Source: an uncultured Gammaproteobacteria bacterium
Lineage (GTDB): Bacteria; Patescibacteriota; Microgenomatia; UBA8517
Length of the DNA stretch: 64,000 bases
NCBI GenBank assembly: GCA_964396785.1
Contig: CAYNFU010000001.1
Span: forward strand, 943 to 64,942
Reading direction: 5' to 3'
Positions 19,724-38,136 of this stretch are shown here, one piece after another; positions within the stretch are counted from its first letter, which is position 1, and every line of letters begins with the position of its first letter. The position numbers and the translations under genes are program-made. The notes beneath the pieces are model-generated. The model did not search any database. It was not told the DNA's origin and saw only the letters and a program-made list of their open reading frames with translations.

Positions 19724-20512
19724 TTACACTTTCATACCCATAACCAATAAGTGTGGCCCCCATAAGTTAAATGGGTAAATACGCTTGCTTCCCAAAAATC
19801 GAAAAAGCTTCTGCATGAAAGTTGGATGGGGTAATTCCTGCTCCCAACAGGAAGAAAAGTATTCTATCGAAAGTCCTTTTTTTTGCAGAAATGTAATTAG
19901 AGAACCAATGTAAGGTTCAACCGTCGTATCCCAATCGATTTCATATTTTTTTCTTGTTGCAATAGGTTCTACCTTATCCCAATTTAACCCTGATTTTGGA
20001 AAAACATCGAGGAAAAATTCTCTTATTAGCTTTACTGCCCTATTACCCTTAAAAGACGGGGAAGCTCGATTGGGGGCACCGAAGTTGGGAGCAACCACCA
20101 AAAATCTCCCACCTTTTCTTAATATTCTCAATCCTTCTTTTAAAACCTTTTCTGGGTTGTCGAGATGCTCAAAAACAAAAGCCGAGTATACTAGGTCAAA
20201 ACACTCATTTCTAAATGGCAATTTCTCTAAATTACCTTGCTTAAAGTCTAACTTTGGATATTTCTTTTTTGCTAGTTCAATCGCCTTGCCGCTAATATCA
20301 ATACCAACTGCTTTTTGCCCTTTCTTGGCTAATAAGTTTAGCCGCGTTCCTTCCCCACAACCCATGTCAAGTATTGAATTTGCATGACTTACAAGCTTAA
20401 AAAGCATTTTCATGGCGGGATGAGAAGAATCTAAGCTACCACCTCTGGCTATGAGGTAATAATCCTTTTTACTCCAAACCTGGTTCCTTAGTACCCTACT
20501 TTTGACCTCCAT
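19724..20512 (-). CDS. Class I SAM-dependent methyltransferase (Methyltransf_11-like)
   Basis: 262 aa. Motif I is ILDMGCGEGTRLNLLAKKG. Post I/II is FDLVYSAFVFEHLDNPEKVLKEGLRILRKGGRFLV. Confidence 0.85.
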   Translation of the reverse strand: MEVKSRVLRNQVWSKKDYYLIARGGSLDSSHPAMKMLFKLVSHANSILDMGCGEGTRLNLLAKKGQKAVGIDISGKAIELAKKKYPKLDFKQGNLEKLPFRNECFDLVYSAFVFEHLDNPEKVLKEGLRILRKGGRFLVVAPNFGAPNRASPSFKGNRAVKLIREFFLDVFPKSGLNWDKVEPIATRKKYEIDWDTTVEPYIGSLITFLQKKGLSIEYFSSCWEQELPHPTFMQKLFRFLGSKRIYPFNLWGPHLLVMGMKV

Positions 20513-21327
20513 ACCTTCCTTTTTACTTTTCTTAAAGGAGTCTCGAAAGCCGCGCGCATCCTGAAAGGCAAACTCATCTTTCCCCAGGGAGATGGGATAA
20601 TTTTCGGCCTTTGCCGGAAAAAAACTTCAGGGTAAAAAAAATCTTTTGGAAATTCCACTCCTAGTTCATGCTTTAGTTTTTGCGGTCGTTTGACAACTAT
20701 TTCGTCGGCTTTCCTATTACCTCCTCTAGGCAAAAGAGAAAAGTGCATGTATGGCACATCGACAAAGTAAATTTTCTTAGGATCTCTATCTTGAATCATT
20801 ACACCATTTTCATCAATCCAACCCTGTGTCCCGTGTGGACGAAGGGATGTAAGCCCAGGAATCCTTCTATTTACTGCCCGGAGGGAGACATGTCCTTTCT
20901 TACCAGCAAGCTCGTACATTCCTGCAGCTTCTTCTTGCCGATGGTAAATATCTCCAATGGGATAAATCATCCTTACAATAAATGATTCAGCCTTATTACC
21001 CTTCTTATTAATTGTGTCTACAACTCCCTTAATTGAATCTTCCCACCAAACTTCGTCACCATCGAGAATAATAAACCAGTCCGAATCTGTTTGGTTAAGC
21101 ATCTCTTGCCGAACTAAAGTGAAATCATCCGCGCCTTCTTGCTTAACCTGCCGAAAGTCTATTTTTTCAGGAAATCGGTTTATTAGCTCTTTACAAATTT
21201 CAGGAGTCTTATCTGTGCTTCCTGTATCCCAAAGAAGGACTTTGTCGACAAACGGGGCAACAGAAGCTACAGAATACCATAAATACTTTTCCTCGTTTTT
21301 AACCAGGGTGTGTGCCCAAATATTCAT
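20488..21327 (-). CDS. Putative GT-A-fold glycosyltransferase (GT2-like)
   Basis: 279 aa. N-terminal WAHTLVKNEEKYL...VLLWDTGSTDKT with FIILDGDEVWWE (DxD). This resembles GT2/SpsA-like nucleotide-sugar transferases, but the family assignment is uncertain. Confidence 0.45.
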   Translation of the reverse strand: MNIWAHTLVKNEEKYLWYSVASVAPFVDKVLLWDTGSTDKTPEICKELINRFPEKIDFRQVKQEGADDFTLVRQEMLNQTDSDWFIILDGDEVWWEDSIKGVVDTINKKGNKAESFIVRMIYPIGDIYHRQEEAAGMYELAGKKGHVSLRAVNRRIPGLTSLRPHGTQGWIDENGVMIQDRDPKKIYFVDVPYMHFSLLPRGGNRKADEIVVKRPQKLKHELGVEFPKDFFYPEVFFRQRPKIIPSPWGKMSLPFRMRAAFETPLRKVKRKVWRSKVGY

Positions 21328-36623: not shown

Positions 36624-37378
36624 TTTTTTCTAAGAAATATTTGTACAGACCCTCCCAGGTATTTTACAAGAGGAATGAATTTAAGGTTATCGAATATTTT
36701 ATCAACTATCTTAAGAATACTTAGTGGTATAAATCTCGCAGGATATATAAACTCAGACATTGAAATATTGATAACTTTAAAGTCTTTAAAAACACTATTT
36801 AAACCTAGGGGATTAACTGCCCATTCGTCTTTCGAATCACCAACTAAACTTTTTAGCTTCCTATTAGACTTTATTATATAAACGACTGGGTTAAGGATGT
36901 TGGGTTCATAAAAAAATGCTAACCCCCTTTTTTTTAGAACTCTCAATAGCTCATTTTTAAATCGAGGTATGTCTAAATGATGTAAAACGTAGAATCCGAA
37001 GACTACGTCAAAAAAGTCAGATTTGAACCCGCTACTATATGCACTTCGGGCAAGAAACCGAACATTTTTGACTCCTGCGCATTTCTTCTTTGCCACCTGC
37101 AAAATCTTCTCAGAAATATCTATGGCAATAATTTTTGACTTGGGAAAGTAATTACATATTCTTTTGGTATACTCTCCTGTACCACACCCAATTTCAAGAA
37201 TTGATATCGGTTTGTTCCCTAAACTTCTTCGAATTGAACTGACAAATTCCAAAACTTTCTTGTCAATTTTGTATTTTGTAAAGTCACCTTCATACCCATA
37301 ATTTGTGTCGTAAGCCAGAGCGGCTTCATTAAAATGTTCTTTTTCGCGAGCTTCCAGTTTTTTAATATTTAATTTCAT
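36620..37378 (-). CDS. Class I SAM-dependent methyltransferase
   Basis: 252 aa. ILEIGCGTGEYTKRI, FDVVFGFYVLHHLDIPRFKNELLRVLKKRGLAFFYEPN. Confidence 0.85.
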   Translation of the reverse strand: MKLNIKKLEAREKEHFNEAALAYDTNYGYEGDFTKYKIDKKVLEFVSSIRRSLGNKPISILEIGCGTGEYTKRICNYFPKSKIIAIDISEKILQVAKKKCAGVKNVRFLARSAYSSGFKSDFFDVVFGFYVLHHLDIPRFKNELLRVLKKRGLAFFYEPNILNPVVYIIKSNRKLKSLVGDSKDEWAVNPLGLNSVFKDFKVINISMSEFIYPARFIPLSILKIVDKIFDNLKFIPLVKYLGGSVQIFLRKK

Positions 37379-38136
37379 GGGACGCTTAGCTTTGCAACAA
37401 CTGAAATTCCTAACGGATATTTAAAATATTTGACCATTCGAACCTCGCTGGTAAATAAAAACTTGAGTAATTCATTTATAAGACTCACGTGGGCGACGTC
37501 GAAATTAACACTATTATCATAGTTGCTTAAACTCCTTAAGGGTTTAAGTCTGCTCAAAAGCCTCATTGAAATTATTGGTAGGGAAAAAAGGAAATTGAAA
37601 TAACTAATAAAATCTACTTTCAATCCTGCTTTTTTCGCCAACATTCTAAACCTTCTTCTTGTGTATCTTCTCTCGTGTCCTTGATTAGTATCGTGCCCAG
37701 ACCAAATAAAGGGAAGTGCCGGGCTTGTAATAATAATTTTCCCTTTCTTCCTCAAAACTCTTGCCGCCTCTTTAACAACCCCAGCATCATCTTCAATATG
37801 TTCAATCACATCAAGAATTAACACTACGTCAAAGAAACCATTCTTGAAAGGTAAATTTAAAGCGTTAGCCTTAAAAATATTTTTGTGTCCCCTTTTTTTT
37901 GAAAACTGAATCGCTTTTTGAGAAGTATCAATGCCATAAAGTTCGGCTTTTGGAAATGAAGTTTTAAGGAATGAAAGAGTCTCACCAGTGCCACAACCAA
38001 CATCTAAAATTCTCTTATATTCCAATCCGCCAAGTAGTCCTTTAATTAGTTCTCGCCTACCTTCCCACCACCAATGAATTTTTTCAATCTCGTTGAATTT
38101 CTCAAGAAGGAAGTCGTCCATGCTCTTTGTTCTCAT
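37375..38136 (-). CDS. Class I SAM-dependent methyltransferase
   Basis: 253 aa. ILDVGCGTGETLSFL, FDVVLILDVIEHIEDDAGVVKEAARVLRKKGKIIITSP. Confidence 0.85.
   Translation of the reverse strand: MRTKSMDDFLLEKFNEIEKIHWWWEGRRELIKGLLGGLEYKRILDVGCGTGETLSFLKTSFPKAELYGIDTSQKAIQFSKKRGHKNIFKANALNLPFKNGFFDVVLILDVIEHIEDDAGVVKEAARVLRKKGKIIITSPALPFIWSGHDTNQGHERRYTRRRFRMLAKKAGLKVDFISYFNFLFSLPIISMRLLSRLKPLRSLSNYDNSVNFDVAHVSLINELLKFLFTSEVRMVKYFKYPLGISVVAKLSVP

Follow-up and report, generated by a model that had tools for sequence, protein, structure and literature searches.

Six methyltransferase genes (MT1-MT6) in the 64-kb window, the whole stretch of DNA analysed here, probably encode six distinct cytoplasmic class-I SAM methyltransferases that serve envelope glycoconjugate biosynthesis and methylate their substrates before membrane crossing. 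The window represents one envelope-glycan superlocus of Candidatus Woesebacteria (CPR/Microgenomates), filled end to end, and includes approximately 18 GT-C-like, eight GT2 and seven GT4 genes, as well as Wzx, Wzy_C and one carbamoyltransferase. Exact matches to proteins of Candidatus Woesebacteria support this assignment. Domain searches of the 64-kb window revealed no methyltransferase gene besides MT1-MT6. The initial annotation had proposed six open reading frames, all of which were confirmed to the nucleotide on the minus strand:

19724..20512, minus strand: MT1, class-I SAM methyltransferase, 262 aa, soluble (PF08241 1.7e-26; motif I ILDMGCGEG)
22635..23378, minus strand: MT2, class-I SAM methyltransferase with a short motif I (PF08241 2.1e-7, C-terminal half only)
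33553..34197, minus strand: MT3, class-I SAM methyltransferase (PF08241 2.2e-12)
34225..34911, minus strand: MT4, class-I SAM methyltransferase (PF08241 9.7e-27)
36620..37378, minus strand: MT5, class-I SAM methyltransferase (PF08241 1.4e-19)
37375..38136, minus strand: MT6, class-I SAM methyltransferase (N-terminal motif ExxHWWWxGR invariant; residues 182-234 form a hydrophobic helical insert)

The genes are operonic, with 4-bp overlaps or gaps of up to 30 bp to their neighbours, and encode single-domain proteins (214-262 aa) with no predicted transmembrane (TM) segments or signal peptide. As expected from the initial annotation, all six scored above the gathering cut-off of Methyltransf_11 (PF08241, 21.2 bits for the whole protein), with 93.1 bits for MT1, 31.9 for MT2, 47.9 for MT3, 93.9 for MT4, 70.9 for MT5 and 82.3 for MT6, and share the seven-stranded Rossmann-like methyltransferase fold. 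The motif I pattern [IV]LD[IMV]G[CGT]G.G, which had been assigned to all six, is present in MT1, MT3 and MT6 and misses MT2, MT4 and MT5. Motif I is canonical in five proteins (MT1 and MT3-MT6), the sequences of MT4 (FLDVGCGLG) and MT5 (ILEIGCGTG) being trivial variants. MT2 has a short DxGGS variant (VLDIGGSMR), which does not vary within its family, and covers the Pfam profile at positions 44-90 only. Its SAM-binding scaffold appears to be kept, because an alignment of 20 family members shows invariant D21, G23, G24, D39 and D62 and two invariant strands (CxHxLEDL and GxIxTPS); WLTGxRRxPGxxHHKW is another invariant motif of this family. In 25 aligned members of the MT6 family, D45, G47, G49 and D70 are invariant, and the hydrophobic helical insert (YFNFxxSxxIIxIRLLSRL) is conserved. 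For the β2 acidic residue, the check by alignment covered these two families, both of which also have invariant His/Arg-rich motifs past β5. The SAM-binding residues, on whose integrity the initial annotation had made its proposal depend, are intact.

Local duplication, implied by the description of these genes as six paralogues, does not explain their origin. MT1-MT6 share 25-44% identity over approximately 100 residues of the Rossmann core, and so they are not recent local duplicates; closer relatives are found in other CPR genomes as full-length orthologues (43% identity for MT1, 56-77% for MT2, 66-82% for MT3, 81% for MT4, 49-56% for MT5 and 52-76% for MT6). These comparisons indicate that MT1-MT6 are old, anciently diverged and separately conserved genes. 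Their density, which had been considered rare, is normal for the group, since the CPR loci L001 and L087 each contain six methyltransferase genes in 20 kb. The proposed embedding in a glycan locus was upheld by the orthologues: at least 15 other loci were inspected, belonging to CPR, an Omnitrophota MAG and a MAG labelled as an unclassified "archaeon", and all of them are glycan loci. A role in glycan biosynthesis is therefore the best reading of the six sequences. The one haloarchaeal relative examined (L071) lies outside any glycan locus. The practical message is that these are real glycan-pathway methyltransferases, neither recently duplicated nor unusually dense for their lineage.

MT3, MT4, MT5 and MT6 are located immediately 5' of two copies of a glycosyltransferase gene designated GTC-A, with small gaps or overlaps. 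The recurring gene order is one or two methyltransferases, GTC-A, a 5-TM protein and a second GT-C, and in the window it comprises, with its upstream neighbours:

29635..30993, minus strand: GT-C-like glycosyltransferase closing the cassette (weak PMT_2 match, 3e-4; 9 TM)
30965..31948, minus strand: 5-TM membrane protein, next after GTC-A (no Pfam or NCBIfam hit)
31945..33528, minus strand: GTC-A copy 2, an old paralogue with 38.6% full-length identity to copy 1
35013..36623, minus strand: GTC-A copy 1, GT-C fold, from a small family that has no Pfam hit (DD following TM1 is invariant; ENxxRxGxxEP)
38182..39666, minus strand: GT-C (PMT_2-like), directly upstream of MT6 (PMT_2 1.5e-5)
39663..42195, minus strand: GT2-DUF2304-GT2-GT2 block (Pfam), candidate polyprenyl-phosphate-sugar synthases and a small membrane protein

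GTC-A shows a GT-C fold, carries an acidic motif in its first external loop and may represent a previously unclassified GT-C family. Orthologues of copy 2 (50-72% identity) were identified in L090, L096, L098 and L104. MT3 is directly upstream of this copy and its orthologues (66-82%) are directly 5' of GTC-A in L090, L098 and L104, with the 81% MT4 orthologue of L090 occupying the identical position in an MT4-MT3-GTC-A array. MT5 overlaps the start of GTC-A copy 1 (the gene at 35013) by 4 bp, and its orthologues (49-56%) directly precede GTC-A or MT3-GTC-A in L088, L095, L096, L098, L099, L102, L104 and L105. A methyltransferase gene lies directly 5' of GTC-A in L003, L088, L090 (twice), L095, L096, L098, L099, L100, L102, L104, L105 and L106, and none of the related loci with upstream sequence lacks one. 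On the other side of GTC-A, the 5-TM orthologue comes next in all 14 related loci with available 3' sequence, followed in related loci by the GT-C-like gene corresponding to 29635..30993. Orthologues of 38182..39666 (45-67%) are found upstream of methyltransferase genes in L090, L096, L100, L102, L104 and L105. The full cassette, and with it the methyltransferase/GT-C gene order, is conserved across CPR, whereas the Omnitrophota MAG has kept only the pair of MT6 and a GTC-A-like gene. In at least nine further cases, an MT6 homologue and a GTC-A homologue have longest contigs of identical length, which suggests that the two genes share contigs. MT6 homologues are not always beside GTC-A, one being followed by epimerases in L001 and one by a nucleotidyltransferase-like gene in L004. 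Downstream of the L105 cassette are Wzm/Wzt, with a Wzt_C domain, and PEP-mutase phosphonate genes.

Two proteins of the GT2 block (41437-42195 and 40793-41440) have their best PDB sequence matches in DPMS (5mlz; 2.4e-15 and 5.2e-10, respectively), GtrB (5ekp) and ArnC. The C-terminal TM helices of GtrB and ArnC are absent from these two proteins and present in those encoded at 28575-29648 and 60728-61684; 39663-40451 encodes a generic GT2. The block is syntenic in L090, L100, L104, L105 and L106. L095 and L099 show the order GT2 (similar to 41437)-MT5-GTC-A, and GT2::GTC-A-like fusion proteins exist. Candidate donor flippases are DUF2304 (40455-40796, 2 TM) and EamA (48150-49004), and no GtrA or SMR flippase was detected in the window.

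The other two methyltransferases belong to a second recurring gene order, MT2-Wzx-GT2-(MT1), in which MT1 is the last gene. This module and its flanking genes include:

18247..19719, minus strand: GT-C (PMT_2-like), directly downstream of MT1 (PMT_2 3.2e-6; 9 TM)
20488..21327, minus strand: GT2 glycosyltransferase without TM segments, conserved Wzx partner (PF00535 9.9e-14)
21324..22604, minus strand: Wzx-type lipid-linked oligosaccharide flippase (Polysacc_synt 4.7e-16; approximately 10 TM segments)
23375..24919, minus strand: GT-C (PMT_2-like), upstream of MT2 with a 4-bp overlap (PMT_2 3.8e-5; 9 TM)

The MT2-Wzx-GT2 module recurs in L086 and L087 and partly in L001. MT2 lies directly upstream of Wzx here and in L086 and L087, which also contain orthologues of the GT-C 23375..24919. 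Orthologues of the GT2 (41-54% identity) come directly after Wzx, or after Wzx and an opposite-strand AsnB gene, in L001, L086 and L087, and in L001 a full-length MT1 orthologue (43%) follows Wzx-GT2. The same operon encodes a second kind of glycan-decorating enzyme:

26783..28558, minus strand: NodU/NolO-type O-carbamoyltransferase (Carbam_trans_N 1e-47; Carbam_trans_C 5e-64)

SAM is present only in the cytoplasm and MT1-MT6 have neither signal peptides nor TM segments; methylation must therefore precede membrane crossing. GT-C enzymes act outside the membrane on polyprenyl-phosphate-linked sugar donors. Judging from their sequences and gene neighbourhoods, MT1-MT6 are most likely sugar methyltransferases whose substrates are lipid-linked intermediates not yet flipped, where we infer all three of the sugar substrate, its lipid linkage and O-methylation as the chemistry. 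The gene order points to action at two sites, the GTC-A cassette and the Wzx module. At the first site, in the most economical model, a DPMS/GtrB-like GT2 of the same operon would attach a sugar to polyprenyl phosphate, a single methyltransferase or a pair of them would convert it to a mono- or di-methyl sugar, the methylated lipid-linked sugar would be flipped across the membrane, and GTC-A would pass the pre-methylated sugar to a surface polymer or protein. At the second site, MT2 and MT1, which flank Wzx and the soluble GT2, probably methylate the lipid-linked oligosaccharide exported by Wzx. A complete four-component extracytoplasmic system, with GT2 loading, O-methylation at the cytoplasmic face by one or two methyltransferases, flipping, and transfer by GTC-A and its 5-TM partner, is a tentative proposal that we consider possible but doubtful. 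A literature search revealed no earlier case in which a polyprenyl-phosphate monosaccharide donor is methylated, and we know of none. Adjacency alone fits action on the donor, on a lipid-linked acceptor or on nucleotide sugars alike. In three-component systems, DprE1/E2, the ORF13 epimerase and ArnD can alter the lipid-linked monosaccharide donor before it is flipped (Kelly et al. 2024, PMC11127046).

If the four-component system exists, it would represent an undescribed route to methylated surface glycans and a core conserved envelope feature of Microgenomates-type CPR. Should the methyltransferases act in the proposed way, CPR surfaces would bear heavily methylated sugars, more hydrophobic and enzyme-resistant for that reason and derived from a modified three-component pathway; methylated sugars might also provide chemical markers or capture handles for CPR. 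CPR/Patescibacteria are ultra-small bacteria, for the most part uncultivated, that attach to other cells and have genomes of approximately 1 Mb; more than 64 kb of this CPR genome is spent on surface glycans, with approximately 18 GT-C genes, six methyltransferase genes and one carbamoyltransferase gene.

Alternatively, the methyltransferases could act on soluble NDP-sugars (O-, N- or C-methylation, as with deoxysugars) later used by GT2/GT4 enzymes or polyprenyl-phosphate-sugar synthases, with the GT-C adjacency reflecting only a shared operon. We regard this as unlikely, given that the 64-kb window contains no genes for an NDP-sugar 4,6-dehydratase, an aminotransferase or an epimerase, that conservation of the methyltransferase-GTC-A order, with its 4-bp overlaps, greatly exceeds that of any pairing of methyltransferases with NDP-sugar enzymes, and that the hydrophobic insert of MT6 fits lipid or membrane contact better.

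It is still less probable that some or all of the six methylate a non-carbohydrate substituent or a carboxyl group, producing a uronic acid methyl ester (AglP-like), a methyl-phosphate cap (WbdD-like) or N-methylated phosphoethanolamine or aminoethylphosphonate. AglP is an ester-forming precedent (PMC3871713), the two AsnB-like amidotransferase genes of the window point to uronic acid sugars, and Wzm/Wzt and phosphonate genes follow the cassette in L105. The best PDB matches to the MT6 profile also include phosphoethanolamine and phosphatidylethanolamine N-methyltransferases, but this similarity covers the generic core only, to which all sequence and fold matches are confined and over which small-molecule, lipid and phosphoethanolamine N-methyltransferases score equally. 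Moreover, the 64-kb window revealed no kinase domain, coiled-coil terminator, ABC transporter, phosphonate, phosphoethanolamine transferase or UDP-glucose dehydrogenase genes.

A chance location of housekeeping small-molecule, protein or RNA methyltransferases (UbiE/MenG, BioC, ArsM, rRNA methyltransferases) in a glycan locus is highly improbable: JGI annotations label many family members "ubiquinone/menaquinone biosynthesis C-methylase UbiE" and the top NCBIfam hits are UbiE, UbiG, BioC and ArsM models, but these hits are 40-500 bits under the curated cut-offs over approximately 100 core residues, the orthologues in at least 15 other loci all sit in glycan loci where examined, the genes have 4-bp overlaps with glycosyltransferase genes, and to our knowledge quinone and biotin biosynthesis are generally missing from CPR bacteria. 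Even in the best cases (UbiG 70.3 bits versus a cut-off of 102.95, BioC 64.1 versus 184.95, MenG/UbiE 64.7 versus 158.35, and ArsM 58 versus 240), no cut-off of these equivalogs was reached, and the relationship to UbiE or arsenite methyltransferases that would have spoken against the initial annotation is limited to the Rossmann core. Characterised sugar-methyltransferase families were below their NCBIfam cut-offs as well (MftM 40.1 versus 200, NanM 24.5 versus 44, Pse_Me-ase 39.1 versus 112).

The preferred reading of MT1-MT6 as methyltransferases of lipid-linked sugars can be compared with several known systems. They share the common Rossmann SAM-binding core with generic UbiE/MenG, BioC and ArsM proteins, but show no relationship to them in the N-terminal (ExxHWWWxGR) and C-terminal substrate regions, and their genomic context is glycan biosynthesis throughout. 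AglP from Haloferax volcanii methylates a sugar during assembly of a dolichol-phosphate-linked glycan (PMC3871713). Like MT1-MT6, it is a soluble class-I methyltransferase encoded in a glycosylation cluster, and it acts before the GT-C enzyme AglB transfers the glycan (PMC3871713). As a difference, AglP esterifies a hexuronic acid of a lipid-linked oligosaccharide with a methyl group. Other sugar O-methyltransferases include the mycobacterial MGLP/MMP and GPL/PGL rhamnosyl methyltransferases, the chain terminators WbdD and WsaE, and NoeI, with RebM as a structural example. These known enzymes work in wholly cytoplasmic or ABC-transporter pathways, whereas the MT1-MT6 genes stand beside GT-C enzymes. 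WsaE is fused to a glycosyltransferase, unlike MT1-MT6. A WbdD-type chain terminator was rejected, as the six proteins are single-domain without kinase or coiled-coil regions and the window contains no kinase or ABC transporter (Wzm/Wzt). Three-component systems (Gtr, Arn, pentofuranose), as reportedly set out by Mann & Whitfield in 2016, consist of a polyprenyl-phosphate-sugar synthase of the GT2 type, a small flippase and a GT-C. The present locus resembles them in combining DPMS/GtrB/ArnC-like GT2 enzymes, small membrane proteins (DUF2304, EamA) and GT-C transferases in one operon. However, it has one or two SAM methyltransferases right before the GT-C gene, whereas the described systems have none, its GTC-A, from a small family that no Pfam model hits, invariably precedes a 5-TM protein and a second GT-C, and it encodes approximately 18 GT-C enzymes instead of one.

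The window is essentially a single glycan locus transcribed from the minus strand. It encodes about 18 multi-TM GT-C-like proteins, 11 of which match PMT_2/PMT at E < 0.001. Six tandem GT-C paralogues (46536-58266; 25-33% identity; PMT/PMT_2 matches in five of the six) form an array broken by an EamA gene and a 6-TM ORF, and a seventh paralogue (62999-63988) is truncated by the window end. Other genes encode eight GT2 proteins (two with GtrB/ArnC-like C-terminal TM helices), seven GT4 proteins, a Wzx flippase, a Wzy_C protein, DUF2304 and EamA membrane proteins, a NodU/NolO-type carbamoyltransferase, two AsnB-like amidotransferases and a hexapeptide acyltransferase. 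The placement of the methyltransferase (MT) genes beside glycosyltransferases in the initial annotation is borne out. With 4-bp overlaps or gaps of at most 30 bp between them and the adjacent genes, the MT genes are operonic.

The carbamoyltransferase gene (26783-28558; "Nodulation protein nolO" in GenBank) shares the MT operon, which makes carbamoylation of the glycan, in addition to methylation, probable. The AsnB-like proteins (16381-18267, plus strand; 58257-60086, minus strand) are 35% identical to each other, and they suggest that the carboxyl groups of uronic acids in the glycan are amidated. The former is one of only two plus-strand genes in the window. The gene at 45253-46530, between GT2 and GT-C genes, encodes a flavin amine-oxidase-like protein of 425 aa (NAD_binding_8 and Amino_oxidase); it may modify sugars as a flavin-dependent enzyme, for instance a mutase or an oxidase. 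A 9-TM protein without Pfam match (42206-43354) has a 34% identical orthologue at 3731-4930 of a relative's locus, L104, recorded with PF04188 (Mannosyl_trans2, PIG-V-like GT-C). The G+C content of 24000-42000, which holds four of the six MT genes, is 0.33-0.36 vs 0.40-0.42 in the flanks.

Methyltransferase genes of the window, with scores against Pfam Methyltransf_11 (PF08241) and identity to orthologues in other genomes or contigs
19724-20512, minus strand: MT1, 93.1 bits; orthologue 43% (CPR contig L001)
22635-23378, minus strand: MT2, 31.9 bits; orthologues 56-77%, across CPR
33553-34197, minus strand: MT3, 47.9 bits; orthologues 66-82%
34225-34911, minus strand: MT4, 93.9 bits; orthologue 81%
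36620-37378, minus strand: MT5, 70.9 bits; orthologues 49-56%
37375-38136, minus strand: MT6, 82.3 bits; orthologues 52-76%, from CPR MAGs plus two other MAGs, labelled Omnitrophica and just "archaeon"

All six ORFs are present exactly as first annotated, and all score above the Methyltransf_11 gathering score (31.9-93.9 vs 21.2 bits). The literal motif I pattern initially ascribed to the whole set is found in MT1, MT3 and MT6 but not in MT2, MT4 or MT5. MT4 (FLDVGCGLG) and MT5 (ILEIGCGTG) carry trivial variants, whereas MT2 has a shortened motif (VLDIGGS) and matches the Pfam profile in its C-terminal half only. An alignment of 20 MT2 family proteins shows invariant D21, G23, G24, D39 and D62, as well as the CxHxLEDL and GxIxTPS strands; because the expected SAM-binding positions are conserved, MT2 is probably active. 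No TM segments were predicted in any of the six proteins. As judged from their sequences, the six MTs are intact soluble class-I SAM methyltransferases; the 64-kb window contains no further methyltransferase gene. Their basic pI (9.5-9.9 in all six) and an amphipathic-helix scan were discarded as evidence of membrane association, being too unspecific. All ten proteins looked up have exact counterparts in MAGs of Candidatus Woesebacteria (GW2011_GWA1_39_12 and RIFCSP genomes), so that the organism belongs to the CPR/Patescibacteria (Microgenomates group). In those MAGs the MTs already carry the generic annotation "Methyltransferase type 11".

Searches for a substrate, using phmmer against the PDB (MT1-3) and an MT6-family profile, returned generic class-I MTs only, and no NCBIfam model scored above its cut-off for MT1-6, including curated sugar-MT models (MftM, NanM-type, Pse-associated). 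The top NCBIfam matches were UbiE/MenG, UbiG, BioC and ArsM. These are restricted to the Rossmann core and fall far below the curated cut-offs (UbiG 70 vs 103 bits, BioC 64 vs 185, ArsM 58 vs 240), which argues against the membership in UbiE or arsenite MT families raised initially. A contig scan with the MT6 family alignment was dominated by the generic motif I pattern, with full-length relatives in three loci only (L006-L008). A haloarchaeal relative (L071) was rejected as a link to AglP, the Haloferax volcanii methyltransferase of archaeal N-glycosylation, its neighbours (CstA, an Obg-like GTPase, FtsZ and TtuA) not being a glycan locus.

The MTs are 25-44% identical to one another over only ~100 residues of the Rossmann core (BLAST), whereas their orthologues elsewhere are closer and full-length, and recent local duplication of the six genes is rejected. 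Two of the GT-C genes belong to a family designated here GTC-A: copy 1 (35013-36623, after MT5) and copy 2 (31945-33528, after MT3). They are paralogues with 38.6% identity. Since both have closer orthologues elsewhere (48-49% and 50-72%, respectively) than each other, the layout [MT6 MT5 GT-C][MT4 MT3 GT-C] reflects an old rather than a recent duplication of two halves. The MT pairs of these halves are not each other's nearest relatives.

The gene order around GTC-A was surveyed by scanning metagenome contigs with both paralogues and comparing all locus ORFs with the window proteins. The sample comprises about 20 loci, some from related populations, and includes fewer independent contexts for MT1, MT3 and MT4 than for MT2, MT5 and MT6. 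The cassette consists of one or two MT genes followed by GTC-A, a 5-TM protein (30965-31948 orthologue) and a second GT-C (29635-30993 orthologue). Every surveyed locus with upstream sequence has an MT gene immediately 5′ of GTC-A.

MT genes preceding GTC-A in relatives' loci
L088, L096, L102: MT5
L090: MT6 before copy 1; MT4-MT3 before copy 2
L095, L099: GT2-MT5, the GT2 being 41437-like
L098, L104: MT5-MT3
L100, L105, L106: MT6-MT5
L003 (Omnitrophota): MT6, before a partner only 23-24% identical to the window's GTC-A

The kind of MT varies, with MT5 the commonest and MT6, MT3 or MT4 added or substituted, and the adjacency to GTC-A is constant. For nine or more additional pairs of MT6 and GTC-A homologues, the longest contigs have identical lengths, a sign that the two probably share a contig. 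MT6 homologues also occur within glycan loci of a 615-kb CPR contig (L001), the Omnitrophota MAG and a marine "archaeon" MAG (L004), together with GT2, GT4, Wzx, NDP-sugar enzymes and GT-C/AftD-like proteins, and two more contexts (L106, L107) are GT-C arrays. A second conserved order, MT2, Wzx, GT2 (20488-type), an optional MT1-like gene and GT-C, is kept in L086 and L087, and in L001 except for MT2 itself. L087 also retains, beside Wzx, the opposite-strand AsnB-like gene (65% identical to 16381-18267). The MT density, initially thought rare, is recurrent in CPR loci: six MT genes fall within 20 kb in both L001 and L087.

The 5-TM protein 30965-31948, without Pfam or NCBIfam match, is invariably encoded between GTC-A and a further GT-C gene, and the pair of 5-TM protein and GT-C is tandemly repeated in five other loci (L095, L098, L099, L104, L105). 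A role for the 5-TM protein as a flippase or as an accessory subunit of a GT-C enzyme is conceivable. In L105 (16071-21578), Wzm/Wzt genes, with a Wzt_C carbohydrate-binding domain, come after the MT6-MT5-GTC-A cassette and are themselves followed by a PEP-mutase/cytidylyltransferase fusion, phosphonopyruvate decarboxylase and Fe-ADH, a gene set indicating probable phosphonate decoration of the glycan.

Neither Pfam nor NCBIfam gave a match for GTC-A, its profile found none in the PDB, and hhalign gave no link to the PMT_2-positive paralogues. The family is small, with 69 cluster representatives at E ≤ 1e-30 among 1.84 billion. Structure prediction was run on database homologues. Behind the first TM helix stand two invariant aspartates, D41 and D42, and a nearly invariant G43, in keeping with the acidic motif that GT-C enzymes carry in their first loop; the motif E144-N145...R148...G150...E153-P154 is also invariant. 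A search for MT::GT-C fusions among long GTC-A relatives found N-terminal extensions of GT2 type, not MT. Three distant relatives (P0442, P0486, P0509) have a GT2 domain of ~250 residues fused to a GT-C-like membrane domain, possibly as single-polypeptide donor synthase/transferases. Two GT2 proteins encoded in the same operon as GTC-A (41437-42195 and 40793-41440) have DPMS (5mlz), GtrB (5ekp) and ArnC as best solved relatives.

SAM is cytoplasmic, and GT-C enzymes work on the outer face with lipid-phosphate-linked donors. It follows that methylation of any sugar which GTC-A transfers must come before the transfer. The MT genes occupy conserved, translationally coupled positions before a GT-C-fold transferase or next to Wzx. 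The most economical scheme suggested by this arrangement is that GT2 would load a sugar onto polyprenyl phosphate, one or two MTs would methylate the linked sugar, and the methylated donor would be flipped for transfer of its sugar by GTC-A. MT2 and MT1 would methylate a lipid-linked oligosaccharide exported by Wzx. MT6 has a Trp-rich ExxHWWWxGR motif, a His/Arg-rich post-β5 motif (QGHxRRY) and a hydrophobic helical insert, and MT2 likewise has a His/Arg-rich post-β5 motif (RRxPGxxHHKW); these features may fit a sugar-phosphate-lipid substrate.

Action on NDP-sugars, for which the epimerase, aminotransferase or radical-SAM genes adjoining some MT6 homologues would speak, is considered doubtful. 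Individual members might instead methylate carboxyl, phosphate or amine substituents, given the uronic acids suggested by the AsnB-like genes and the phosphonate and Wzt_C genes of L105; this reading is considered quite improbable. Housekeeping roles are effectively excluded by the sub-threshold family-model scores and the glycan-locus context.

Several sugar-modifying MTs in one glycan locus are already known biology. Literature searches on glycan methylation in CPR bacteria, or on a GT-C superlocus there, gave nothing relevant. As far as the searchable literature shows, the conserved MT-GT-C cassette, the GTC-A family with its 5-TM partner, and the scale of the GT-C/MT superlocus in a bacterium whose group has very small genomes (64 kb of a small CPR genome with about 18 membrane proteins of GT-C type) are undescribed. 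The same literature yielded no report of methylation while a monosaccharide is attached to polyprenyl phosphate. A precedent for methylation ahead of GT-C action is AglP, which methylates a sugar while the dolichol-phosphate-linked glycan is assembled, before the GT-C enzyme AglB acts (PMC3871713). A further precedent is the alteration of lipid-linked monosaccharides before flipping in three-component systems (PMC11127046); the enzymes concerned are DprE1/E2, an ORF13 epimerase or ArnD. Methylation of the lipid-linked donor before its use by GTC-A would make a "four-component" pathway bringing pre-methylated sugars to GT-C enzymes, a tentative proposal which, if true, would be of high interest.
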